Source: a virus. Taken from it: a DNA stretch of 64,000 bases. The notes beneath the pieces are model-generated. The model saw only the letters and a program-made list of their open reading frames with translations. It searched no databases and was not told where the DNA came from. The position numbers were made by a program, and so were the translations under genes. Within the stretch, counting starts at the first letter, position 1, and each line of letters opens with the position of its first letter. This document shows positions 14,808 to 63,064 of the stretch, piece by piece. The stretch is taken from the IMG/VR virus record IMGVR_UViG_3300030102_008089, positions 63,434 through 127,433 of that record; one strand, written 5' to 3'.

Positions 14808-15638
14808 TTGATAGTTATACAGTTAACAAATGGATTTGGAAATAATTTATTCCAATATAATGCAGCAAAATTATTGGCAGAGTTCCTTGGACAAGAGGTA
14901 TACTGTGTGCCGCCATTTCAAGATTACTATGCAATAAGTTCACTCAAATCGTTAGGTTTCAAGTTCCTAGAAAACAATCACACGGTTTCTGGAGTTGTTG
15001 TCCCAGAGAATTCTTATAACCTGTGTTTCGATAAAAAATACGAAAACGAAACATTTATTTTGTCTGGGTACTTTGAAGATTATCGATACTTTGACAAAGA
15101 CATAAATAAGATAAAATCTTGGTACCCAAAGGCAGAAAAAAGAAAAGACAAAGATCTTGTTATACACTTTAGGGCTGGAGATAGGTTATTTTACAAAAAT
15201 GAGTTTTATACCAAACCACAAGTGCAGAATTATAAGAGAGCAATAGAAAAATTTAATTTTGATAAACTTCATATTGTAACTGATATGCCAAAGTGGGACT
15301 TTATCACCAAGAGTGATCTAAAGTCCATGAGTTTTCATTATAATGTGCCAGAGAAAGATAGGGTCTCAGCACAGGAGTCGGTTGATTACTTTAATTCGTT
15401 CATTGACGGGTTTTCAGAATATAATCCAATTATGGAAAAAAGATCGATCGTAGATGACTTTAACTTCATAAGAACCTTTGATAATATATTGTTCCAACAT
15501 GGGACATTAGGATGGTGGGCTTCGGCTTTGAGTGAAGCATCCAAAGTTGGTGTTTATGGACCTTGGCGGACTTGGAAGGCAGACTCTAATAAAAACTTAA
15601 GTCAAGTTGGCCTAGAAGGTTGGTTTAAATGGGAATAA
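14808..15638 (+). CDS. GT11 alpha-1,2-fucosyltransferase-like protein
   Basis: TTG start; GFGNNLFQY, VIHFRAGD (HxRxGD) and GTLGWWASAL. Confidence 0.85.
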   Translation: MIVIQLTNGFGNNLFQYNAAKLLAEFLGQEVYCVPPFQDYYAISSLKSLGFKFLENNHTVSGVVVPENSYNLCFDKKYENETFILSGYFEDYRYFDKDINKIKSWYPKAEKRKDKDLVIHFRAGDRLFYKNEFYTKPQVQNYKRAIEKFNFDKLHIVTDMPKWDFITKSDLKSMSFHYNVPEKDRVSAQESVDYFNSFIDGFSEYNPIMEKRSIVDDFNFIRTFDNILFQHGTLGWWASALSEASKVGVYGPWRTWKADSNKNLSQVGLEGWFKWE

Positions 15639-17424: not shown

Positions 17425-18283
17425 ATGTTTGGTAACGGGACACAAAGGTTACATTGGGGCGCACTTATTTAATAAGCTAAAAGAGTTGGGTCACGATGTT
17501 AGAGGTATTGATTATAAAGATAATCCTTCGGAAGATCTGTTGGTAGTTTTGGACAATGACCCATCTTATGCCGAATTTAAACCAGAAGTAATCTTTCACA
17601 TGGCTTGTATTCCTCGTGTTGGTTATAGTATGGAATACCCTGTTGAGACTATGACAAACAATGTTCTAGCCACAACTAAGATTTTAAACTTTGCTAATAA
17701 AGTAAAAGCCAAAAGAGTAATTTACTCAGGATCCTCTTCGGTTGTTGGTGACGGTAATGGTCCCAATAGTCCTTATGGTCTACAGAAACTTATTTCGGAG
17801 ATGGAGTGTAAGCTATACGCAAAAGTTTTCGATATCGATACAGTCACTCTCAGGTATTTTAATGTTTACTCGCCTGATCAATCTGCTAGTGGTCCGTATG
17901 CCACAGCAATTTCAAACTATATGCAATATATTCGAGATGGTCGAACACCCTTTATTACTGGTGACGGTAATCAGCGTAGAGATATGGTTAATGTTAAGGA
18001 TGTTGTTGGTGCTAATATATTTGCTATGAATCACAATAAGAATTTTAATGGAAAACATTATGATGTTGGTACAGGAAGTAATATTTCTCTCAATGAAGTA
18101 AAAGATATTGTTCAAAAACACTTCCCAGGTTTAGATTTTGAATATGTAGAAGACAGGCCTGGCGACATTTTATTTACACAAGCTGATGTTAAACCATTAA
18201 AGAAACTTGGCTGGAGTGCTAAGATAGATATACGAAACGGAATTAATGAATGTTTCCAGAAAACAAAAGGAGAAATAAAATGA
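17417..18283 (+). CDS. NAD-dependent epimerase/dehydratase (GalE/WbpP-like SDR)
   Basis: VTGHKGYIG, SPYGLQK, LRYFNVY, ITGDGNQRRDMVNVKDV. Confidence 0.9.
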   Translation: MTRCLVTGHKGYIGAHLFNKLKELGHDVRGIDYKDNPSEDLLVVLDNDPSYAEFKPEVIFHMACIPRVGYSMEYPVETMTNNVLATTKILNFANKVKAKRVIYSGSSSVVGDGNGPNSPYGLQKLISEMECKLYAKVFDIDTVTLRYFNVYSPDQSASGPYATAISNYMQYIRDGRTPFITGDGNQRRDMVNVKDVVGANIFAMNHNKNFNGKHYDVGTGSNISLNEVKDIVQKHFPGLDFEYVEDRPGDILFTQADVKPLKKLGWSAKIDIRNGINECFQKTKGEIK

Positions 18284-18447
18284 AATTTTCTAACCAAGCA
18301 ATTGGCTCTCTATTGATGACTTTACAAAAATGTCTGTCAGAGCAGACGGATATTACTGAATTGTTGGCAGATTGGGACCTAGAAATTAAAAACGACGAAA
18401 TTGTAGTAACTAATCCTCCGTCTTTTAAGTCAGATGTTATTGAGTAA
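18280..18447 (+). CDS. Small hypothetical protein (55 aa)
   Basis: AGGAG SD then ATG 18280 (MKFSNQAIG...), which overlaps the upstream stop. Confidence 0.7.
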   Translation: MKFSNQAIGSLLMTLQKCLSEQTDITELLADWDLEIKNDEIVVTNPPSFKSDVIE

Positions 18448-18710
18448 TGCCACTTTATAACTACGATTGTTTGGAGTGTGATAGTAGTTTTGAACTTAGG
18501 CACTCTTACAAAGAAAAGAATGTCGAGTGTATTGTGTGTAAGTCAAAGAACATTAAAAAGAACTTATCACAACGATCGCAAGTAACAAAAAAAATATCTT
18601 TTGTGGATAAAAAACTTGGATCTGAAGTAGAGAATGCAATTCAAGAAGGAAGACAAGATTTAAACAAACAAAAGTCAAAAATAAAGAACCGAACCTACAT
18701 CAAAAAATGA
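18447..18710 (+). CDS. FmdB-like zinc-ribbon protein
   Basis: MPLYNYDCLECDSSFE...CIVCKS (CxxC...CxxC). Confidence 0.8.
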   Translation: MPLYNYDCLECDSSFELRHSYKEKNVECIVCKSKNIKKNLSQRSQVTKKISFVDKKLGSEVENAIQEGRQDLNKQKSKIKNRTYIKK

Positions 18711-19003
18711 CAAATACTTTATTATCAATATTTTTGTTCTTATCTGTATCGATAAACATATTGTTTTTCTGGTACATTCGAAATCTTTTGCAGTATTTAA
18801 AAACAACAAATGAGGAAACAAAAGAAGTCTTGATAAAGATATCCGATTTTAGTGAGCATTTAACAACTGTTTATAACAGGGATATTTTTTATGGTGATGC
18901 TACTCTTGAGGCTTTACTTCTGCACACTCAAGAAATGTCAGAGGAAATGGAAGCTTTTGTTAAGACAAACAATAATATTATGTTAGAGACTGAAGATGCC
19001 TAG
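18707..19003 (+). CDS. Small membrane-anchored hypothetical protein
   Basis: N-terminal hydrophobic helix LLSIFLFLSVSINILFFWY followed by an acidic helical region. Confidence 0.65.
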   Translation: MTNTLLSIFLFLSVSINILFFWYIRNLLQYLKTTNEETKEVLIKISDFSEHLTTVYNRDIFYGDATLEALLLHTQEMSEEMEAFVKTNNNIMLETEDA

Positions 19004-49476: not shown

Positions 49477-49484
49477 ACTATTTA
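49477..49484 (+). promoter_or_regulatory. Late motif ACTATTTA upstream of 49529
   Basis: In a 75-nt intergenic gap. Confidence 0.6.
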
Positions 49485-53439: not shown

Positions 53440-53457
53440 CAAACTATTTACTTTATG
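53440..53457 (+). promoter_or_regulatory. CAAACTATTTACTTTATG (late motif plus start codon), copy 1
   Basis: 18-nt exact match to 59717-59734. Confidence 0.7.
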
Positions 53458-54069
53458 CTTTTAACTCAAGACATAATCCGCAGACTAATCAAGGAACAGA
53501 TACAAGACTCTTTGAATCTTAAAGAAGAGGTTTCCCTTAGTGGGAAGGATTTAGAAGAAAAGATAAATAGCATCGTCAGTTCTTTGGGTAATATCAGACA
53601 ATCTCAGCAGGTTCAAATTCTTCAGAAGGTAGAAGCCAAGATTAAAGAAGCCCCCGCTAATCGTAAAGACATAGACGAAGCGTGCGGTGACATGCAATCA
53701 ATTGATATGGGTGTTGATCATCACGATGATGACCACGAGGGCAGTATGGCAAAGCGGCAAATGTTTAAGACGGCAGAGTATGCTGCCGAAATTTTTGACA
53801 ACATCCACGATGATGATGAGTTCCCAGCGTGGATCCAAAGCAAAATGACGAAGATAGCAGATTACATTGGTGTGGTCAAGCACTACCTTGAGTATGACCA
53901 CGTTATGGGCGAAGCGAAACTTACTAAGAAACAAATTAAAGGTCGTGATGATGATGCTAAAGAAATAATGAAAAGCACCATTAAGCAATATGGAAAAGAG
54001 GAAGGCACAGACGCTGCCTACGCTATTGCTACTAATATACAGAAAGAAAAAGCAAAAAAGAAAAAGTGA
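53455..54069 (+). CDS. Leader-bearing modular protein (leader MLLTQDIIRRLIKE)
   Basis: Leader variant; internal module DHEGSMAKRQM...PAWIQSKMTKIADYIGVVKHYLEY; basic C-terminal module. Confidence 0.75.
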   Translation: MLLTQDIIRRLIKEQIQDSLNLKEEVSLSGKDLEEKINSIVSSLGNIRQSQQVQILQKVEAKIKEAPANRKDIDEACGDMQSIDMGVDHHDDDHEGSMAKRQMFKTAEYAAEIFDNIHDDDEFPAWIQSKMTKIADYIGVVKHYLEYDHVMGEAKLTKKQIKGRDDDAKEIMKSTIKQYGKEEGTDAAYAIATNIQKEKAKKKK

Positions 54070-54656
54070 AAATCACAGTTGAAAAAATCAGGGAACTGAT
54101 TAAAGAAGAAACACAGAGAGTTCTTAACGAACAAGGTGTTTATACAACAACTGGAAAGAGTTTTACTCGCCCGAACTACAGTGCTTCCAAAGAATTTAAG
54201 ATAAAGTATCCAAACGTTGCTTATGATATACCAAACGTTGGGATAGAAAAGCTTAAAAAAGCATATTTAAGCCATTATGTCAATATGGGTGTTCTGGAAA
54301 AAATGTTAGCGATGGCCAAAAAAACAGAGAAACCAGAGGTAATTAAAAGATATCAAGATCTTTATGATGAGGCAGAGATGCACCTTAAAGAATTGCAGGC
54401 TCACCCTCGTTGGGATGACTTAAAAAAGTATTTTGAAGAAAATCCTAAGGAAATGCAAGCCGAAGAAAGCCTAAGAAAGACTTATTACAACCAGACGGGA
54501 TCGTACAGCCTGTGGAAAAAAATGAGCAAGCCTGGAGGATACTACAAGGGGATGTATACAGATATTATTGATATGTCCAAAGTAAGGTCAGCAGGGAATG
54601 CCATTGATGCCGCTGTGCGGAAGTCCAGGCGTGAAGATGGCAAATATTTTAGTTGA
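54066..54656 (+). CDS. Leader-bearing hypothetical protein (MKITVEKIRELIKEE)
   Basis: GTG start overlapping the upstream stop; shared leader. Confidence 0.75.
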   Translation: MKITVEKIRELIKEETQRVLNEQGVYTTTGKSFTRPNYSASKEFKIKYPNVAYDIPNVGIEKLKKAYLSHYVNMGVLEKMLAMAKKTEKPEVIKRYQDLYDEAEMHLKELQAHPRWDDLKKYFEENPKEMQAEESLRKTYYNQTGSYSLWKKMSKPGGYYKGMYTDIIDMSKVRSAGNAIDAAVRKSRREDGKYFS

Positions 54657-54669
54657 TATAAAAAATTAC

Positions 54670-54700
54670 TTGACCCACTAAAAACCTATGGTATTATAAT
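54670..54700 (+). promoter_or_regulatory. Sigma70-type promoter
   Basis: TTGACC (54670-54675), 16 nt, then TG-N-TATTAT extended -10 (54689-54697), overlapping TATAAT (54695-54700); intergenic. Confidence 0.7.
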
Positions 54701-54719
54701 GTTGAAGGGAGGTGCTCCT

Positions 54720-55361
54720 GTGAAGTACCAAGTCTTTAGCGATATGGATGGTGTCCTTGTCAACTTTGAGGGCGGCGTTCTAGAATATATGAACGAGAAG
54801 TTCCAAGAGATTGCAAACAATCAGGAAAAGTACAAAGCCCTGCGTGGCTCTGGTAGCCCTGATTACAAGCTCTACAAGCTTGCCCGAGCCGCAGCCAGAG
54901 AACTTGGCGGCTGGGACGTAGAAATTAACAAGTGGCACATTGCTCGCTCCGACATGGAGGGCAGCCTTGGACGCAACAAGCGGATCCGAGACTTGATGTA
55001 TCGGATGGTTGAGAACAATGCTTCTCTCTGGGCAAACCTCGGCTGGGAGCGTGGCGGAAAAGAACTTTGGGATTACATTAAAGACATCCCAGGGTTGGAG
55101 ATTTTGTCGGCTCCAATGGCTGAAGGGTCTAAACTTGGCAAGAAAATCTGGGTCCAAAGAGAATTAGGTCTGCCGATAGAAAAAGTTAACTTGTCTGACA
55201 GTAAAGAACCCTACGGAGTTTGGAACGGAAAACAAGGACTTCTGATTGACGACCGTGACAAATATGTCAACGAGTTCCGTGAGGGTGGCGGCATCGCTAT
55301 TAAACATAATCCAGATGACGTGGATAATACGATTAGGCAACTCAAAGAACTGGGACTCTGA
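54720..55361 (+). CDS. HAD-family 5'(3')-deoxyribonucleotidase-like protein
   Basis: SDMDGVLVNF (DxDGV), ILSAP, GKKIWV, LLIDDRDKY. Start set to GTG 54720 after AGGGAGGT SD. Confidence 0.85.
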   Translation: MKYQVFSDMDGVLVNFEGGVLEYMNEKFQEIANNQEKYKALRGSGSPDYKLYKLARAAARELGGWDVEINKWHIARSDMEGSLGRNKRIRDLMYRMVENNASLWANLGWERGGKELWDYIKDIPGLEILSAPMAEGSKLGKKIWVQRELGLPIEKVNLSDSKEPYGVWNGKQGLLIDDRDKYVNEFREGGGIAIKHNPDDVDNTIRQLKELGL

Positions 55362-56309
55362 TTGTTCAACGATCCTAACTCTGTAAAGAAAAAGAAAATC
55401 CTTGATGAAATCCTTGGCAGACCATACCGCCAAGGCAAGGAATACCTTTACGACTCACGATGTTGCGGGCACCACAAAAAGAAACTGTCAGTCAACTTTG
55501 ACAAGAATGTTGCCAAGTGTTGGACATGCGACTGGCGTACCAAAAATTTACGACGCCTTGTCAGGCGATGGGGCGATATAAGTCATATCCATAGATGGAA
55601 GGATTTTGACGCCGATATTGAGCTAGGCGACCTAGGCAACCTGTTTGCCAAGGAAGAGGATATAAAACAGCGAATTGACCTTCCAAATGAGTTTCAAACA
55701 CTAACTGGTCGTTCCCACCCTGCCTCGGCAAGAGTTCCCCTAAACTATTTACGCAAACGTGCCGTTGAACAGAAAGACGTCCTTTATTGGAAGATTGGCT
55801 ACTGCGCTTCTGGGGAATACAAAAATAGAATTATTCTCCCATCATTTGACGAAGACGGCTACTGTAACTTTTTCACGTCTCGTACATATGACCCCAACGT
55901 TTGGCCTCCGTATTTGAACGGACCAGGGAACAAAGACATTATCTTCAATGAACTACTGATTGACTGGGAACGAGAGGTCACTCTGGTTGAGGGTGTCTTT
56001 GATGCGATCGTTGCTGGCGAGAATAGTATTCCGCTATTGGGATCGACCCTGCGAGAGGACAGCCGACTTTTCAGGAAGATTGTAAAAAACGATACACCAG
56101 TATTGCTGGGTCTGGATGCTGACGCCCACAAAAAAGCCATGAAACTTGTGAAGGCTTTGCTGGCGTATGACGTAGAAGTTAGACTTATGGATACGTCGGG
56201 CTACAAAGACATTGGAGAGATGCCGCAAGAAGTTTTTGACCAGCGAAAAGAAGATGCGCCTTTTATTGATTCTGATGCCTATTTAATGAGGATTGCTTTA
56301 TTGGCATGA
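55362..56309 (+). CDS. DNA primase (Zn-binding domain plus Toprim)
   Basis: CCGHHKKKLSVN...CWTC zinc domain, RIILPSFD, LVEGVFDA, LGLDADA (Toprim E and DxD). The TTG start is uncertain. Confidence 0.9.
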   Translation: MFNDPNSVKKKKILDEILGRPYRQGKEYLYDSRCCGHHKKKLSVNFDKNVAKCWTCDWRTKNLRRLVRRWGDISHIHRWKDFDADIELGDLGNLFAKEEDIKQRIDLPNEFQTLTGRSHPASARVPLNYLRKRAVEQKDVLYWKIGYCASGEYKNRIILPSFDEDGYCNFFTSRTYDPNVWPPYLNGPGNKDIIFNELLIDWEREVTLVEGVFDAIVAGENSIPLLGSTLREDSRLFRKIVKNDTPVLLGLDADAHKKAMKLVKALLAYDVEVRLMDTSGYKDIGEMPQEVFDQRKEDAPFIDSDAYLMRIALLA

Positions 56310-56318
56310 GGGCTCAGA

Positions 56319-57185
56319 ATGAAAATAACAATTTCTCAACTTCGGGGTATGGTAGAAGAAGCCTTACTTGATGAGAAGAAAAAAAAGCGAAAGAAAAAAA
56401 AGAAGAAGAAAGGCGGCAAAAAAGACGCCTGCTATCATAAGGTAAAAGCTCGTTATGATGTTTGGCCTTCTGCTTACGCTTCTGGTGCCCTCGTAAAATG
56501 CCGAAAGGTCGGCGCTGCCAATTGGGGCAACAAAAGTAAAAAAGAAGGAATCGAGCAAGATCCTCTTCGTGATATGATTCGTGAGACCATATCAGAATTG
56601 ACTGAAAAAAAAAGTAATCCTCGCATCCCAAGAAAAAAGGGACAAAAGAAAAAGTCAAAAAAGCACAGCGACCTCTACACCGATGAGGATCCAAAAGGCA
56701 CAATCCACGGACTGAAGTTTGCCACCGAAGCAGACGCAAAGAAAAGTGTGTCCAAAATCCGCAACTCCAGCCGCTCGCACGCTCATAAGGTTCAAGCCGC
56801 TGTTGCCATGGAGCAACGAGCAAAAGCAGCGGGTAAAGCCTCCGCTGCCGCAGTTTACAGAAAATATATTAACTCCGTAAAAAAAGATGAGAACCTTGAA
56901 GAAGAACCTATTGAGGAAAAGAAAAGAAAACTGACCAAGAAGCCCTCGTCAGAAACGAGCTTACGAGACTGGTTCAAACGCAAAGGAGCTAAAGGTAGCA
57001 AGAGTGGTTGGGTAGATTGTAATACCTGTCGCAAAGATAAAAAGACAGGCAGAAAAAAATGCAGTGCTTGTGGTCGCTCTAGCGGCGAAAAACGAGCAAA
57101 GTATCCGAAGTGCCGACCCACACCAGCGGCGTGTAGTAAGCGAGGCAACTATGGCAAAAAATCAAAGGCAGGTAAAAAAGGATGA
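56319..57185 (+). CDS. Leader-bearing, Lys-rich three-module protein
   Basis: Leader MKITISQLRGMVEE; modules DACYHKVK..WPSAYASGALVKCRK, DLYTDEDPKGTI..HKVQAA and SLRDWF..WVDC..C..C..C..YPKCRP. Confidence 0.8.
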   Translation: MKITISQLRGMVEEALLDEKKKKRKKKKKKKGGKKDACYHKVKARYDVWPSAYASGALVKCRKVGAANWGNKSKKEGIEQDPLRDMIRETISELTEKKSNPRIPRKKGQKKKSKKHSDLYTDEDPKGTIHGLKFATEADAKKSVSKIRNSSRSHAHKVQAAVAMEQRAKAAGKASAAAVYRKYINSVKKDENLEEEPIEEKKRKLTKKPSSETSLRDWFKRKGAKGSKSGWVDCNTCRKDKKTGRKKCSACGRSSGEKRAKYPKCRPTPAACSKRGNYGKKSKAGKKG

Positions 57186-57967
57186 AAAAATTACTAACAG
57201 AATGGCGAAAGTTTCTAAAGGAAGTTGATTATGAGGCAAGCGAACTCGCAATACAGATTCGACAAGAGAACCAAAAGTTGCGAGATAGAATTGAAGCCGC
57301 AATGAAAAGAGAAGGTGTTGACTGGATTTTAGAAGATATACCAGAGTGGTCTTTGATTGCTACCCCTACTTCAGAAGATGGGAGACAGCAGATGATTGAC
57401 GATATGGATGAAATTCTAGCAACCTACGGAAGTCCATCTGTCAAAGAACTTCTTATGACAAATGAGAGTGTAGAAAAAGAGATCTCAAAAACGCTGTCCG
57501 ACGAGGGCGGCGCTTCTGGCTTAGATCCATTACACAAGGCTGCTAAAAAGGTAGAAAAAAACATTTCCAAAAAAGAAGTAGAAGACATTATCAAGAAAAT
57601 GGATAATGTTACTAAACATCGTGATGGTGATTATATCAAAGAAGAGTATTACCACATCAGTGATGCTACCTATGATGATGGCACACTTGTTGAAGATGTA
57701 GAATTCTGGGACGACGTAGTTGTTGAAGCAGAATACCGTGGACGCAAAGTCAAGCTTAACAAGCCAACTCGTGGAGATGTAAAAAAATTTAAGGTCTATG
57801 TCAAAGACCCAAAAACTGGAAACGTCAAGAAGGTAAACTTTGGCGACAAGAATATGAGAATTAAAAAGTCCAACCCAAAGCGTCGCAAGTCTTTCAGGGC
57901 TCGACATAACTGTGATAACCCAGGACCAAAAACAAAGGCTCGCTATTGGTCTTGTAGGAAGTGGTAA
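57182..57967 (+). CDS. Leader-bearing protein with basic C-terminal domain
   Basis: Leader MKKLLTEWRKFLKE; acidic middle; C-terminal KKFKVYV..VNFGD..RRKSFRARHNC..ARYWSCRKW. Confidence 0.8.
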   Translation: MKKLLTEWRKFLKEVDYEASELAIQIRQENQKLRDRIEAAMKREGVDWILEDIPEWSLIATPTSEDGRQQMIDDMDEILATYGSPSVKELLMTNESVEKEISKTLSDEGGASGLDPLHKAAKKVEKNISKKEVEDIIKKMDNVTKHRDGDYIKEEYYHISDATYDDGTLVEDVEFWDDVVVEAEYRGRKVKLNKPTRGDVKKFKVYVKDPKTGNVKKVNFGDKNMRIKKSNPKRRKSFRARHNCDNPGPKTKARYWSCRKW

Positions 57968-58431
57968 TGAAAAAGCTGATGACCGAATGGAGAAAATTTC
58001 TCCAAGAAGAGATGAAGGTTGTCATCAGTGCGGCAAAAGAATTTGTTTGCCCGCCAGCAACCCAAGACCTAAAACTCAACACAAAGAACCGTGATGCCTC
58101 CATCAAGGCAGAACACATTCAGTACGGACCTCTCAACGTTGACGAGCCAGGTGATTACTGGAAAGACATAGCCGAGTACTGGAACACGACCGAGGCAGCC
58201 GCCAAAAAGTCCAACTGCGGAAATTGTACTGCTTTTGATATTTCTCCACGAATGGACGCTTGTATGCCAGGCGTGACCTCTGATAACGATGGCAGACTTG
58301 GTTACTGCTGGATGCATCATTTCAAGTGTCACTCGGCTCGCTCTTGCCGCACTTGGGCAAAAGGCGGACCAATCAAAGAAGACAGCGTATCTTACGAGTG
58401 GCAGGAAAGAAACGACTTTGGGACAACCTAA
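57967..58431 (+). CDS. Leader-bearing Cys-rich protein (HiPIP-like or other metal-binding domain)
   Basis: ATG 57967, leader MKKLMTEWRKFLQEE; CGNCTAF...C...GYC..H.F.C...R.C..W. Confidence 0.7.
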   Translation: MKKLMTEWRKFLQEEMKVVISAAKEFVCPPATQDLKLNTKNRDASIKAEHIQYGPLNVDEPGDYWKDIAEYWNTTEAAAKKSNCGNCTAFDISPRMDACMPGVTSDNDGRLGYCWMHHFKCHSARSCRTWAKGGPIKEDSVSYEWQERNDFGTT

Positions 58432-58880
58432 TGAAAAAGTTGATGACCGAGTGGCGGAAGTACATAAAAGAAGAGAAGATGGCAGACCTTGATGCCGAGC
58501 AAGCATATAGCACAAAAGTAAAAGGTGTCAACGTAATTATTAATCTAAAAGACACAGACCTTCAAGCAACCAAGCACAGCAAGGAACGACAGTTTCGCCA
58601 CGACGAAAAGATTTCCAACCGAGCAATCATCCAAGCGGTTGAGTTAGCCATCGGAAAAATCATTCAGGACTATGCCAACGGCGAACTTGGCAACGACGAG
58701 CCTTTCCATATTCGCATGGTCGGCAGAGGAAAGGTCCCAGCCCTCAACGTCATCGCAGTTTTAGATATGCGAAAAGGACCAGACACAATAAAAGTAATTA
58801 CAGTAATGCGTAAAGACGATTTTAAGACTGACAGTTTTGCTGGCGGACAACAAAAAACTTACACGGTACAATCACGATGA
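58431..58880 (+). CDS. Leader-bearing protein with possible DUF4258/RelE-like (BECR) fold
   Basis: Start moved to ATG 58431 (TAATG overlap), leader MKKLMTEWRKYIKEE; TKHSKERQFRH..I...AI and terminal IKVITVM. Confidence 0.55.
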   Translation: MKKLMTEWRKYIKEEKMADLDAEQAYSTKVKGVNVIINLKDTDLQATKHSKERQFRHDEKISNRAIIQAVELAIGKIIQDYANGELGNDEPFHIRMVGRGKVPALNVIAVLDMRKGPDTIKVITVMRKDDFKTDSFAGGQQKTYTVQSR

Positions 58881-59701
58881 AGTTGATTATGGAAAACTGG
58901 CGAGGCTTTCTCCAAGAGGGAAGATACGAAGCGGCCACAACAGAACTGACCCGCAAGGTAATACCTTATGTCAAATATATTATTGACGAGATACTGCCTG
59001 GGCTCATTGAAAATCCGCCACGCAAGGACTTGACAGTCGTAACACCCAAAAGATATGAAAGGGGTAAAGGACTCCCAAAAGAACTTGAAGAAAAGATGTA
59101 TTCTGTTTCGTTCAAATTTTATATTGATAAAAAACTAGCAGAAGAAACAGGGGACAAATTCCAAATCGGCGGGGCTTTTATGGGAGACCCAGAAATCCCA
59201 AGCGATAGTTATATGGTAGTCAATAGTTATTTGGATACTGGCTTCAGCGAACAAGATCTTAACGCTTATCTTGGCGAACTCAAAGCAGTCACTATCCACG
59301 AGATTCAACACGGCGGCCAAACCGATGATGTGTTGAAAACCTCTGACCCCCGAACTTACAACCCTATGGGCGGAATCAACTGGAACTATAACAACCTTGA
59401 TGGTATTCGTGGATATTATGCTTCGGAATCTGAAACAGATTCTTACACCAAAGAAGTTTATAAAAGAGCAAAGTATTATAAAATACCTTACACAGAAGCG
59501 TTAGATATGCGTATCAAACAATTCTTTGATATGTTTAAGCGCCGCCGAGACAAGATGAACGCCGAAGACAAGAGGGAAACTCCTGGCGAGTTTAGGGTCC
59601 AGTACACAGAAGAAGAACTCAAAGACTTCTTTTACAACGAACTGCGTGATAAATATATTGCGTTTGCTAAAACAAAATATCCAGAGGCTGTGGGAATATA
59701 A
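58877..59701 (+). CDS. Leader-bearing putative zincin metallopeptidase
   Basis: Leader MKLIMENWRGFLQE; TIHEIQHGGQ (HExxH) with downstream YYASESE. Confidence 0.6.
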   Translation: MKLIMENWRGFLQEGRYEAATTELTRKVIPYVKYIIDEILPGLIENPPRKDLTVVTPKRYERGKGLPKELEEKMYSVSFKFYIDKKLAEETGDKFQIGGAFMGDPEIPSDSYMVVNSYLDTGFSEQDLNAYLGELKAVTIHEIQHGGQTDDVLKTSDPRTYNPMGGINWNYNNLDGIRGYYASESETDSYTKEVYKRAKYYKIPYTEALDMRIKQFFDMFKRRRDKMNAEDKRETPGEFRVQYTEEELKDFFYNELRDKYIAFAKTKYPEAVGI

Positions 59702-59716
59702 CAAATACTCCTTTCG

Positions 59717-59734
59717 CAAACTATTTACTTTATG
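59717..59734 (+). promoter_or_regulatory. CAAACTATTTACTTTATG (late motif plus start codon), copy 2
   Basis: 18-nt exact match to 53440-53457. Confidence 0.7.
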
Positions 59735-60202
59735 AGTAGGGAAAGGGATTTCTACAGAAAAATGCAAGAAGACGCTCGTAATTCTATGTACGAGCCAGAG
59801 ATTATTGATGTCTCCCCACCCGCCAAGAAAGTAAAAACCAACTACCTTTCAGCAGTCGTTTGGACTTCGGTTGTCGCAACTGTGGTCTGTACGATTTTTA
59901 TGGGTCTCCTTTTATATGTTGTGAATGAGAGCCAGATTGAAGAGCGACTTGAAACGGCTGCGAGCCACGCTCTTTACAATTTGGAAAGCGTCATCAAGCA
60001 GCAGAACATAGAGATACAGCAATTGAAGGCAGAAAATAAAAAGATATATAATCACATAAAGTTTTGGACTCCGATAGAACACAGGTTTCCACCAGGCGTA
60101 AAAGAAACCTGGGAGATACCGTTCTACGGAACACCAAAATATGAACGCCGCTCTTTCCAATTATCACAGGAACCAGAACTATGCTTACCTTTCTTGGAAT
60201 AA
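59732..60202 (+). CDS. Single-pass membrane protein with coiled coil
   Basis: Hydrophobic AVVWTSVVATVVCTIFMGLLLYVV, then heptad-like LESVIKQQNIEIQQLKAENKKI. Confidence 0.7.
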   Translation: MSRERDFYRKMQEDARNSMYEPEIIDVSPPAKKVKTNYLSAVVWTSVVATVVCTIFMGLLLYVVNESQIEERLETAASHALYNLESVIKQQNIEIQQLKAENKKIYNHIKFWTPIEHRFPPGVKETWEIPFYGTPKYERRSFQLSQEPELCLPFLE

Positions 60203-60984
60203 TCGTTTTAGTAATCTTTATCCACGAACTGGGACATTATGTTGCAGCCCGTGCTATGGGTGTCGCTGTTGATAGTTTTTCAATAGGGTTCGGCAAAGTC
60301 CTTCTTAAAAAGAAGCTGTGGGGAACTGAATGGCGACTATCGCTTCTACCACTCGGGGGATATATCAAACCTCGGGGAGAAGACGATTATTATAATGTAA
60401 AACAAGATCCGCAATCGTTTTGGTCAGCAGGACCGTGGAAGCGTGCCTTTATTGCGGTAATGGGACCAGTATTTAATTTATTGTTACCCTGGCCATTATA
60501 TTTTTTACTCCTGGTAGGACAGCCGTACCCTGATGTTGTGGTTCCCGAAGGGGCACAGGCTCACCGTATTGGTGTAGTAGAGGCGGCAGGCTATGCTCAC
60601 AAGGTGTCGCTAAAAATGTATAGCAGTATTTGGGAAGCCGTGACAATGCCCCGCCAAGAGCCAATGAGTGTCAAAGAAATAGGAGGACCTGTCGCTGTTT
60701 ATGAGTTTACCGAGTCCGCAAGAAAGCGGAGCGTAGAAACAGGAGACTGGGGATTTCTCATCGACTGGATTGCCTTTTTCTCCATCAATCTCGGTGTAAT
60801 CAATCTATTGCCAATCCCAGTGCTTGATGGTGGGCATATTGTAATGTCTACGGTGGAGGGGGTAAGACGTAAAAATTTGGAAGCAAAGACAAGGAACGTA
60901 CTAAATATAGTTGGTGCGGTTCTAGTGCTTGGGCTGATGGTTGTTGCAATAACTTCTGACGTGCTACGCCTTACTGGCATCTAG
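60181..60984 (+). CDS. rseP: RseP/M50 site-2 intramembrane metalloprotease lacking PDZ domains
   Basis: IFIHELGH, FSIGFG, LPLGGY, GPVFN, GGPV, NLGVINLLPIPVLDGGH; only 267 aa. Confidence 0.9.
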   Translation: MLTFLGIIVLVIFIHELGHYVAARAMGVAVDSFSIGFGKVLLKKKLWGTEWRLSLLPLGGYIKPRGEDDYYNVKQDPQSFWSAGPWKRAFIAVMGPVFNLLLPWPLYFLLLVGQPYPDVVVPEGAQAHRIGVVEAAGYAHKVSLKMYSSIWEAVTMPRQEPMSVKEIGGPVAVYEFTESARKRSVETGDWGFLIDWIAFFSINLGVINLLPIPVLDGGHIVMSTVEGVRRKNLEAKTRNVLNIVGAVLVLGLMVVAITSDVLRLTGI

Positions 60985-60986
60985 GA

Positions 60987-60994
60987 ACTATTTA
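60987..60994 (+). promoter_or_regulatory. Late motif ACTATTTA upstream of the Cys-rich peptide
   Basis: Intergenic, 24 nt before ATG 61019. Confidence 0.6.
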
Positions 60995-61018
60995 GATAAA
61001 CCCGTGGGGGAATAAATA

Positions 61019-61105
61019 ATGAAAAACGAAAATAAATGCGAGTGTTGTTGTTGCTGTTCTTGTTGTTGTAGTTGCGAGTGTGGTAAAGACGGCTGCTGCG
61101 GCTAA
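61019..61105 (+). CDS. Metallothionein-like peptide MKNENKCECCCCCSCCCSCECGKDGCCG (28 aa, 13 Cys); not in the ORF track
   Basis: Translated by hand: ATG 61019 to TAA 61105, GGGGGA SD, ACTATTTA motif at 60987, fills an otherwise empty gap, mixed TGT/TGC codons. Confidence 0.7.
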   Translation: MKNENKCECCCCCSCCCSCECGKDGCCG

Positions 61106-61117
61106 AAAGGAAACATT

Positions 61118-62035
61118 ATGAAAATTACTAAATCTGAACTTCAACAAATTATCAAAGAAGCCACCCAAGGTGAAGTGGAGTTTGCCAAGCTAGAAAAAGC
61201 CCGTGAAAACTTCGTGCAAAACCGAGGCGACGACCGAGCCATCGACGACCTTCTGGTAATGGTGGAGAAACTTGTAGAACCTCTTATGGCTGAGATGGGA
61301 CTTTACTTCGATGTCCAGCCGCTTATTATTAGTGGAGAAATTGTCTTCACCAACGACCACAATATGGAAGTCAGGATTGACCCCCGTGGAGCGATGGGAA
61401 AATATGACGTCAAGGTTAACCCGCTCCACGCCGCCCACGATAGTTTTGATCGAGTTGAAATAAGCCTTGACAGTATGAAAGGCGTAGTGCAATATATCAA
61501 GGATGAGTTCAGAGAAGAACTACAACGAGGCGGAACATATAAACAGCCACCAATGGGTATGGTCGGCGAACCAGAAGGTCAAATGGAATTGCCCTTACCC
61601 AGGGAGAATAAAATGAGAGTCACAAAATCAGAACTACAACAAATCATCAAAGAAGAGATGGAAGCAGAACTTAGCGAAGATAAGTATGCCACCGAAGACG
61701 ACCGCCCTTTGGGAACAGGTCGCTCCTTGATGAGTGCTGAAGACGCAAAAAAGGCGTCAAGAATGGCTGACACGCTATATAGGACGCTTGGACCAGACAG
61801 TAGCGTTGACTCAATGGTCAGAATTTTGGTTCGGCAACTCTCTGACCTTTTGAAAAAGGGTGTGACTGGTGGTCGTTCCGACGGACCCGTCGGCAAAGGT
61901 CCTGCTTCTGCGGCAGATATGGAAAGATACGAAAGTGATTACCGTGACCCACCCAGAGAGCCACTCAAAATGGGTACTGGTCGCCGAGGACCAACCAAGG
62001 CAGAACTTGATATGATGAAGGACTATGACATCTAA
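61118..62035 (+). CDS. Double-leader protein (MKITKSELQQIIKE; internal MRVTKSELQQIIKEE at 61613)
   Basis: Two leader copies in frame; the second has its own AGGGAG SD. Confidence 0.8.
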   Translation: MKITKSELQQIIKEATQGEVEFAKLEKARENFVQNRGDDRAIDDLLVMVEKLVEPLMAEMGLYFDVQPLIISGEIVFTNDHNMEVRIDPRGAMGKYDVKVNPLHAAHDSFDRVEISLDSMKGVVQYIKDEFREELQRGGTYKQPPMGMVGEPEGQMELPLPRENKMRVTKSELQQIIKEEMEAELSEDKYATEDDRPLGTGRSLMSAEDAKKASRMADTLYRTLGPDSSVDSMVRILVRQLSDLLKKGVTGGRSDGPVGKGPASAADMERYESDYRDPPREPLKMGTGRRGPTKAELDMMKDYDI

Positions 62036-62036
62036 A

Positions 62037-62291
62037 ATGAAAATCACCAAGTCTGAACTACAAAAGATAATCAAGGAAGAGATGGAAGAGGTGGCGGAAG
62101 GTCTATTGACCGAAACATCTGTTTCTCGGCTACAAACTATGCTTTATAGAATTGAAGATGATTTCGTGCCCTACCTTCAAAATACTCGGAGCGGAAAAGA
62201 ATTTGAGATAGCCAGAGCCACTATGCAGCTTCGCAAACTCTTAAAAGAAGGAATACAAGAACTTTCCGGAGACAATTATGAAGATTACTAA
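62037..62291 (+). CDS. Leader-bearing small protein (MKITKSELQKIIKEE)
   Basis: Start moved to ATG 62037, the start of the leader. Confidence 0.8.
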   Translation: MKITKSELQKIIKEEMEEVAEGLLTETSVSRLQTMLYRIEDDFVPYLQNTRSGKEFEIARATMQLRKLLKEGIQELSGDNYEDY

Positions 62292-62667
62292 AACGGAACT
62301 AAAAAAAATAATCAAAGAAGAACTCCTCAAAGAGTTTGGCTCGGAAGAGTACGGACTTCAAACCAAAGAGTTTGAACCTATCCCAGAATTAGAATTTGAA
62401 ATTGGCGATGAGGTTGATGTGCTTGGGGGTGTGTTAGCTGGTGCCGTTGGTGAAATAGAGGGAATGGGTAAAGTAGATGGTCGCCCCACTGTTGTTTTAC
62501 GCTTGTTGTCTGACGCTGGTGATACAGACTATAAGAGCGGCGCTCAAGTTCTTGTACGTCCTGACTTCCTTGAAAAGCGAACTGACCTTTTTGCCCAGCG
62601 TATGGGACGCAAAGCAGAAAACCCACGCCGAGGACCAATGAAGTACTATGGAGTCAAAGACGTATGA
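62278..62667 (+). CDS. Leader-bearing protein with KOW/SH3-like domain
   Basis: Leader MKITKTELKKIIKEE; FEIGDEVDVLGGVLAGAVGEIEG matches the KOW pattern of NusG/L24. Confidence 0.65.
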   Translation: MKITKTELKKIIKEELLKEFGSEEYGLQTKEFEPIPELEFEIGDEVDVLGGVLAGAVGEIEGMGKVDGRPTVVLRLLSDAGDTDYKSGAQVLVRPDFLEKRTDLFAQRMGRKAENPRRGPMKYYGVKDV

Positions 62668-62921
62668 AAATCACCAAATCACAATTGATAGAAATTATCA
62701 AAGAAGAAATAAATGAGTTAGAAGATCCTCGCAGCCCAAACAAACCGTCATACGAGTACGAAGGGCACGCTGATGATTTCAGAAGACAAGTTATGAACTT
62801 GGTTCTTCGACTTGGACCTCTTACATTAGAACCAACACTGGCCGCCGCCGTAGAAGTAGAGATTAGAGACGTTCTCAATACTCTCGGCATTGGCACTGAC
62901 CCACGGTCAAAGTACGAATAA
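62664..62921 (+). CDS. Leader-bearing small protein (MKITKSQLIEIIKEE)
   Basis: Shared leader; ATGA overlap with the upstream gene. Confidence 0.8.
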   Translation: MKITKSQLIEIIKEEINELEDPRSPNKPSYEYEGHADDFRRQVMNLVLRLGPLTLEPTLAAAVEVEIRDVLNTLGIGTDPRSKYE

Positions 62922-63064
62922 TGAAAATCACCATGAATCAACTTCGTGAAATGATACGGCAACAACTTGAAGAGCGTTGCCAAAAGGGCTATAAAACCCA
63001 CGAAACTCGCAAAACAAAAAAAATGTTTGGTAGAACATACAGAAACTGCGTCAAGGCAGACTAA
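62921..63064 (+). CDS. Leader-bearing 47-aa protein MKITMNQLREMIRQQLEERCQKGYKTHETRKTKKMFGRTYRNCVKAD; not in the ORF track
   Basis: Translated by hand; TAATG overlap with the upstream gene; leader plus a CxKGY...NCVK basic module. Confidence 0.8.
   Translation: MKITMNQLREMIRQQLEERCQKGYKTHETRKTKKMFGRTYRNCVKAD

Follow-up and report, generated by a model that had tools for sequence, protein, structure and literature searches.

The viral DNA examined here (the window, 64,000 nt) comprises positions 63,434-127,433 of IMG/VR record IMGVR_UViG_3300030102_008089 and forms the right-hand half of that 127,433-bp record (G000), which is 59% complete and has every gene on the + strand. The window contains an array of 12 + strand genes whose otherwise unrelated products carry one of two short N-terminal leaders, with 13 leader copies in all, and we consider below that these leaders are probably capsid-targeting propeptides of the kind known from phage T4. 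The consensus of type A is MKITKSxLxxIIKEE and that of type B is MKKLxTEWRKFLKEE; the positions of both, collected in the table further below, agree exactly with a preliminary description of this DNA, which had counted 13 leaders on 12 genes with unrelated bodies. Other products of the window include a primase and an Mre11-like nuclease, a gp6-like baseplate wedge protein, and tail or fibre proteins of very large size. A megablast search of the array against 50,697 phage records gave no match, and in the wedge protein identity to the nearest cultured phages is only ∼31%. The primase served as anchor for retrieving 28 syntenic relatives from IMG/VR; primase identity to complete or near-complete relatives is 53-91%, and one relative of 190,528 bp, rated 100% complete (G001), was examined over its full length. 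We read these phages as a distant uncultured marine T4-like lineage.

A loose regular expression for the leaders matched the + strand of G000 16 times and its - strand not once. Two small profile hidden Markov models (HMMs) built from the leaders, for which start-anchored matches of at least 12 bits were counted, gave 35 + strand matches in G000 and 36 in G001, and none on the - strand of either genome. Several of these matches were alternative starts of one gene and were collapsed before genes were counted, leaving at least 19 leader genes in G000 (the 13 window copies and genome positions 7291, 33308, 35044, 35922, 36824 and 37913) and ∼26 in G001. In a stop-to-stop six-frame scan every strong match opened at the first Met of an open reading frame (ORF), the sole exceptions being in-frame internal copies at 61613 of the window and 188342 of G001.

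For leader counts we used a related set of 30 loci, in which 172 leader genes reduced to 140 non-redundant leaders (85 of type A and 55 of type B). Glu occupies position 14 in 122 of the 140 (78/85 in type A and 44/55 in type B), and position 12 is I, V or L in type A and mostly L in type B. The capsid-targeting sequence (CTS) of T4 spans 10-19 residues; its N-terminal hydrophobic positions direct targeting, and its positions 8 and 10 (I-x-E) direct cutting by the prohead protease gp21, for which the motif is (L/I)-x-E (PMC9026906). The combination of position 12 and E14 in both leader types fits this rule. Conservation of type B stops abruptly at the same place, column entropy rising from ∼1.2 to 3.1 bits right after E14, while type A loses its conservation gradually across positions 15-19, where an E, an L/I and another Glu in turn offer a second L-x-E site. 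The leaders had also been called amphipathic, and their mean helical hydrophobic moment is indeed 0.52 (type A) and 0.62 (type B) compared with 0.29 +/- 0.16 for other G001 N-termini; 5-8 of the 14 residues are charged and mean hydrophobicity is ∼ -0.3.

The leaders are conserved at the level of protein and not of DNA, since synonymous codons are close to random: at positions with the same residue, codons were identical in 158 of 318 pairs for type A (0.50, with 0.41 expected from codon usage) and in 47 of 106 for type B (0.44, with 0.44 expected). Hydrophobic periodicity and an invariant Trp are kept out to residue 14, and the DNA upstream of the leader starts differs from gene to gene. Selection acts on the leader peptide. 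The preliminary description had named conservation at the DNA level as grounds for abandoning a protein tag; with codon identity near expectation, the tag came through this comparison. A strict DNA pattern for the type B leader occurs in only 24 stretches on ∼18 large contigs among 2.9 million IMG/VR contigs, a rarity from which we take the leader sequences to be specific to this lineage.

When payloads were grouped by BLASTP (E <= 1e-5, at least 50% coverage), the 12 window genes fell into 12 different families, and the 140 non-redundant leaders were found to ride on 60 families, most of them singletons. One basic payload of ∼105 amino acids (aa), which ends in YWSCRKW and has at least 80% body identity between copies, occurs behind either leader type, directly after a B leader in two loci (L005 and L011) and directly after an A leader in two others (L007 and L012). 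This exchange suggests, as far as sequence can tell, that the two leader types are at least partly interchangeable. The scan of the genome and its relatives thus turned up the shuffled payloads that had been anticipated, one of them with either leader, but it lent no support to the accompanying idea of two docking classes, the A/B swap on the same payload being found instead. In the 57182 protein (proteins are named here by the first position of their genes) a B leader and an extra module precede the YWSCRKW payload, and the junction, ...YIKEE/YYHI..., repeats the leader end. The 61118 protein joins two modules, and between them stands a second complete leader, namely the in-frame type A copy within ORF 61118-62035. 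No stop codon stands between the upstream module and this internal leader in the window, in G001 or in L007; the internal Met has its own ribosome-binding context (GGGAG...AAA), so separate initiation is also possible. In a corresponding fusion of a further locus (L015:16469-17164) the internal type A leader starts with Thr (ACG) and not Met, with the rest of its residues intact, and is therefore present there only as part of the fusion protein. These results directly establish a modular, N-terminus-specific tag that is conserved as protein and ends in the T4 protease motif.

Genes for head assembly are visible in relatives. Three of them (G001, G002 and G003) each encode a Peptidase_S77 (PF03420) protease at 99.8-111.1 bits, and the relatives' head protease matches phrog_207 (E = 5.9e-54). 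In G001 the portal gene, the protease gene and a strongly acidic scaffold-like gene follow in this order with a gp23 homologue downstream; the protease gene occupies 14940-15536 of G001 and the scaffold gene 17965-18945. Against T4 gp23 structures the G001 capsid protein gave E = 2.8e-29. Common to the capsid proteins of G001, G006 and G008 is the segment ...LLENQAAQLL(K/R)E..., which lies just upstream of the segment aligning with the start of mature T4 gp23 and contains two conserved L-x-E sites; at P4-P1, LL(K/R)E follows the pattern of the leader ends IIKE and FLKE. A 128-aa gene between the protease and scaffold genes of G001 has a weak leader-like start (MKKSELKNIIKE, 8-13 bits).

Some further features of the head region were noted. 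Between the protease and scaffold genes of G001 there is also a gene resembling ribosomal protein bS21 (L034:17197-17478; phrog_21469, E = 6e-8). In the N-terminus of the G001 capsid protein (L049:5959-6100) the propeptide segment ALLGKWERTGLLEG resembles the type B core LLTEWRKFLKE, which may be chance; the type B HMM gave no match of at least 7 bits on this N-terminus, and the resemblance is therefore held only as an idea. In another relative a 196-aa ORF (L081, G008:C1:9343-9540) matches capsid protein residues 17-85 at 38% identity, and could encode a vertex-protein paralogue or another protein with the capsid propeptide region.

A connection to virions comes from the 56319 protein, which matches 371 phage records, mostly T4-like cyanophages. 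In Synechococcus phage S-SM1 its match is SSM1_115 of gene cluster T4-GC119, a 'structural protein' of T4-like cyanophages for which purified S-SM1 virions gave 13 peptide counts (Sullivan et al. 2010, Supplementary Table 8, PMC3037559). For two modules of the 56319 protein the match to S-SM1 T4-GC119 has E = 7e-25 and 6e-5. A T4-GC119 module is also matched (E = 3e-6) by the body of the 62921 protein, a module that in relatives forms the start of longer proteins (family FAM 8); the modules held in common are DACYHKVK...NWG, SLRDWF and CxKGY...YxxCVK. T4-GC119 is a single 495-aa protein with neither an MKIT nor an MKKL leader; the modules that cyanophages string together in one polypeptide thus each carry a separate tag here. 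Phage P-TIM68 has yet another module of the 56319 protein, in a gene right after the capsid gene. The 57182 protein was also considered as a T4-GC119 relative, but the similarity was not significant and the link was dropped.

A Pfam scan for enzyme cargo among 65 tagged proteins identified ART-PolyVal, NUDIX, GNAT and DUF3293 domains and a weak S-AdoMet-lyase match. The ART-PolyVal domain begins at residue 18 of its protein (L007:14753-15328; 56.6 bits) and the NUDIX domain at residue 20 (L003:12624-13028; 58.4 bits); in these two proteins and in the GNAT protein (L010:16561-16992), all from relatives, a type B leader stands directly ahead of a complete domain (start residues 18-20). Judged by these domain boundaries, the leader in the relatives is an add-on in front of a complete enzyme domain. 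For domains of such types in polyvalent proteins, packaging and injection with the DNA have been predicted (Iyer et al. 2017, PMC5512222), and the same paper points to T4 Alt as an ADP-ribosyltransferase that is packaged.

Table 1. Leader genes and neighbouring features of the array (positions are those of the window; aa, amino acids)
Feature	Position	Strand	Description
Motif ACTATTTA	53443..53450	+	4 nt upstream of first leader gene
Leader A gene (MLLTQDIIRRLIKE)	53455..54069	+	204 aa; acidic, His-rich body; family FAM 4, leader retained by orthologues in 10 related loci
Leader A gene, GTG start (MKITVEKIRELIKEE)	54066..54656	+	196 aa, basic; singleton payload
Two genes without leader	54699..56309	+	220-aa protein; 315-aa primase-like protein (weak DNAG_N match)
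Leader A gene (MKITISQLRGMVEE)	56319..57185	+	288 aa, 30% Lys+Arg, multi-module, basic
Leader B gene (MKKLLTEWRKFLKE)	57182..57967	+	261 aa; two modules; C-terminus matches phrog_7595
Leader B gene (MKKLMTEWRKFLQEE)	57967..58431	+	154 aa, 7 Cys; family FAM 3, 12 members, all with B leader
Leader B gene (MKKLMTEWRKYIKEE)	58431..58880	+	149 aa; nearest named Atlas cluster DUF4258 at 0.82, a lead only
Leader B gene (MKLIMENWRGFLQE)	58877..59701	+	274 aa, invariant HEIQH
Motif ACTATTTA, membrane protein and M50 metalloprotease	59720..60984	+	156-aa and 267-aa proteins, none with leader; between B and A sub-arrays
Motif ACTATTTA and Cys-rich ORF	60987..61105	+	28 aa; heads type A sub-array
Leader A gene, two modules	61118..62035	+	305 aa; second full in-frame leader (MRVTKSELQQIIKEE) at 61613
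Leader A gene (MKITKSELQKIIKEE)	62037..62291	+	84 aa, acidic
Leader A gene (MKITKTELKKIIKEE)	62278..62667	+	129 aa, acidic; family FAM 7
Leader A gene (MKITKSQLIEIIKEE)	62664..62921	+	85 aa, acidic; family FAM 13
Leader A variant (MKITMNQLREMIRQQLEE)	62921..63064	+	47 aa, basic Cys module

No Pfam family was found for any of the window's own payloads, and PHROGs gave matches only for the 56319 protein (phrog_727) and the 57182 protein; Pfam likewise returned nothing for nine tagged or neighbouring proteins of the upstream cluster in G000. Several labels had been attached to these payloads from the sequence. 'Lys-rich' and 'Cys cluster' are correct by composition, while 'KOW' found no backing in Pfam. 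In the ESM Atlas the 57967 and 58431 proteins retrieved only viral hypothetical clusters apart from the DUF4258 lead, which is all that we found for the label 'RelE-like'. The 56319 protein is a candidate internal head or DNA-associated protein on the basis of its sequence. After its leader (residues 19-31, at 56364-56400) it has 12 basic residues, 11 Lys and 1 Arg, encoded by an A-rich tract; the Lys run varies from 4 to 13 or more Lys among orthologues, which suggests slippage-prone variation.

For the 58877 protein a search of 5.8 billion proteins returned 51 homologues, all of them close relatives from this lineage, the full-length ones being at least 57% identical. Throughout this family the junction LQE/GRYEAATTELTRK is invariant and the post-leader residues G15-R-Y-E-A-A-T-T are unchanging, and the leader alternates between two type B sub-variants ahead of these constant residues. 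In an AlphaFold2 model (mean predicted local distance difference test score, pLDDT, 82) the leader forms a separate helix of residues 2-14 with a break at G15. Of the earlier HExxH label the motif itself stood, as it is invariant, but no fold match accompanied it: Foldseek found nothing for the model in the PDB at E <= 0.001, and a VIA wide search gave only helical-bundle matches (Z ∼6) on the C-terminal third. The sequence would be compatible with a small zincin-like enzyme as one possible function. One metagenomic homologue (P0047, 387 aa) has a 110-aa N-terminal extension in place of the type B leader, with two type A-like cores (ITKMIQEE and LITQMIKEE) just before the invariant QEGRYEAATT junction.

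The motif ACTA(C/T)TTA (ACTAYTTA) occurs 25 times on the + strand of G001 and twice on the - strand. Its copies are intergenic in 7 of 16 cases in G000 (p = 2e-6) and 10 of 25 in G001 (p = 4e-9), with intergenic DNA making up 3-4%; the significance of the motif lies in this placement and in the strand bias only. Within the window it stands ahead of the first leader gene, the membrane-protein/M50 pair and the Cys mini-ORF, with another site at 49477, and in G001 (17923, 151201 and others) it stands ahead of the scaffold gene, the gp6-like wedge gene and other structural genes. We consider it a candidate promoter-type signal, possibly a late one, and its placement would fit co-expression of the leader arrays with structural genes. 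At 53443 and 59720 the motif is only 4 nt from the ATG, in the identical context caaACTATTTActttATG. The type A sub-array opens, in the window (61019-61105) as in G001 (187239, the arrangement of motif and ORF spanning 187209-187239), with an ORF of 28-33 aa, mostly Cys, that comes after the motif.

We interpret the leaders, by analogy, as capsid-targeting propeptides that would work in the manner of T4 in a greatly expanded system with new leader sequences, and assign to this a probability of about 0.6. Docking, cleavage, packaging and ejection are what we infer for this lineage from that analogy. The tagged genes would be expressed together with structural genes, and the basic amphipathic leader helix would dock each protein on the acidic scaffold core of the assembling prohead. 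The gp21-type prohead protease would then cut after the conserved Glu (P3 = I/L, P1 = E14), and also at similar sites between modules, freeing the mature proteins inside the head, from which they would exit together with the DNA when the phage infects. Among the cargo there appear to be lysine-rich DNA-associated modules and small acidic proteins, joined in relatives by ADP-ribosyltransferase, NUDIX and GNAT enzymes. The preliminary description had proposed just such a modular, Glu-terminated tag resembling the T4 CTS, and this proposal has partial and indirect support, given by the protein-level conservation, the N-terminal placement and the (I/L)-x-E boundary of the leaders, and further by the A/B swap, the gp21-type protease of relatives, the modules shared with S-SM1 virions and the enzyme payloads of relatives. 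We hold much more tentatively, and rather doubt, that A and B constitute a two-class address system by which at least 20 different proteins per virion form an unbundled 'polyvalent protein' arsenal. The classes could have different docking partners, and type B could dock where the capsid protein's own propeptide docks, because its core LLxEWRKFLKE loosely resembles LLxKWxxxGLLE of the capsid protein.

A number of observations weigh against capsid targeting. The head module is absent from the G000 fragment, so that a PF03420 search of G000, which found nothing, is uninformative on absence, and the head protease is visible only in relatives. Eighteen of the 140 leaders have no Glu at position 14. 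On the T4 CTS itself (MKTYQEFIAE) the leader HMMs scored ∼0-1 bits, amounting to no similarity, and the likeness is one of logic and pattern only. A load of ∼26 cargo species per genome, some of more than 300 aa, is far above the known T4 load. The start of T4-GC119 differs from the leaders, and on the S-SM1 genome the leader HMMs reached at best 8 bits, alike on both strands, with no MKIT or MKKL leaders; as S-SM1 has the modules in its virions without a leader, virion incorporation of those modules does not need the tag. The ACTAYTTA motif is no more frequent in the window alone than expected by chance (10 copies compared with 6.9 +/- 2.4), and its role as a late promoter is not demonstrated.

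A final point on that side is the Peptidase_M50 gene (200.7 bits), which lies with the membrane protein gene between the B and A sub-arrays (59732-60984), itself occupying 60181-60984, and invites a different account. The leaders might be pro-sequences or membrane-surface helices for the phage's own M50 (site-2 type) protease, modelled on the amphipathic pro-sequence of pro-sigma-K that is removed by SpoIVFB, and the tag would then set the timing or place of effector activation. This would suit the strong amphipathicity of the leaders and the retention of the M50 gene in four of five related records, among them each of the three with a completeness of at least 90%. However, M50 proteases cut hydrophobic, membrane-embedded segments, whereas the leaders with their high charge and low mean hydrophobicity are not membrane-like; the I/L-x-E end is the signature of a gp21-type and not of a site-2 protease; and G003 has leaders and a gp21-type protease while no M50 gene was found in this 81%-complete record. 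We regard this account as very unlikely. A broader alternative is that the leader stays uncleaved and, with no part in capsid loading, acts as an N-terminal helix through which the proteins bind another shared partner, which could be a chaperone, a host complex, a degradation system or a partner for oligomerisation. A tag that is modular and conserved as protein would be expected on this account too, and it can draw on the leaders without Glu14 and on the entry of homologous modules into S-SM1 virions without this tag. It leaves unexplained why conservation ends exactly at an (I/L)-x-E site, why that site is repeated at module junctions, why only a lineage with a gp21-type protease has the tag and why two payloads are homologous to modules of a virion protein, and we consider it unlikely. 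The tight packing of the genes, their shuffling between relatives and a conserved GAGAAUAAA-AUG context ahead of some leaders might instead point to a signal in the nucleic acid, such as a region for initiating translation or a hotspot at which recombination shuffles genes. The near-random synonymous positions largely refute this; moreover, the upstream DNA differs between genes, the hydrophobic periodicity and invariant Trp run to residue 14, and the internal leader of L015 is kept without a start codon. We give this explanation next to no credence.

Capsid targeting by a removable leader is known in principle from T4, where the CTS of IPI, IPII, IPIII and Alt is removed by gp21 (Mullaney and Black 1996, as reviewed in PMC9026906), and the CTS has been suggested as a general route by which T4-like phages load proteins of various kinds (PMC9026906). 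The present system resembles it in having a short N-terminal peptide common to unrelated proteins (10-19 aa in T4), with an MK start, an amphipathic character and an (I/L)-x-E end, in a T4-type phage whose relatives have a gp21-family protease, a scaffold core and a gp23 capsid. Here, relatives differ in their cargo, which extends to an ADP-ribosyltransferase, and the internal-protein (IP) loci of T-even phages are polymorphic (Repoila et al. 1994, as cited in PMC9026906). The differences are that the leader is 14-19 aa long compared with 10, that there are two distinct leader classes, that ∼20-26 genes per genome are tagged compared with 4-5, with at least 60 payload families across the 30 loci, that some proteins have internal leaders or multi-module architecture, and that the system is known from sequence alone. 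Polyvalent proteins (PMC5512222) offer a second comparison, in their ART-PolyVal, NUDIX and GNAT repertoire and in their proposed delivery with the DNA at the start of infection. They carry two to 15 effector domains per polypeptide, whereas most tagged proteins have one domain or module; here separate small genes each have a leader, and only the 56319, 57182 and 61118 proteins have 2-3 modules. The giant phages phiKZ and SPN3US, as described in PMC5694885 and PMC10052503, also have ejection proteins whose propeptides are processed, with many head-internal proteins cut after Glu by a T4-related prohead protease, but those are large jumbo-phage proteins, and a shared short leader is not presented in these accounts as their defining feature. 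Thus the principle was already known from T4, and what is new here is the leader sequences, their two classes, the far larger number of cargo genes and the shuffling of tags and payloads.

If the leaders are capsid-loading signals, they would give a list, from sequence only, of the proteins injected by a group of abundant uncultured ocean phages; should they also form a two-class address system, two 15-residue profiles would be sufficient to read the injected proteome directly, and new effector families could be listed in this way, of which at least 60 are present here, nearly all without known function. Host defences encounter injected proteins before any other molecules. The leaders would also supply two new natural tags for packing foreign proteins into T4-like heads. 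For the biology of this family, capsid loading would mean that the internal-protein principle, which in T4 covers 4-5 proteins, applies to dozens of mostly uncharacterised families, and would show phages swapping address tags and payloads as separate parts.

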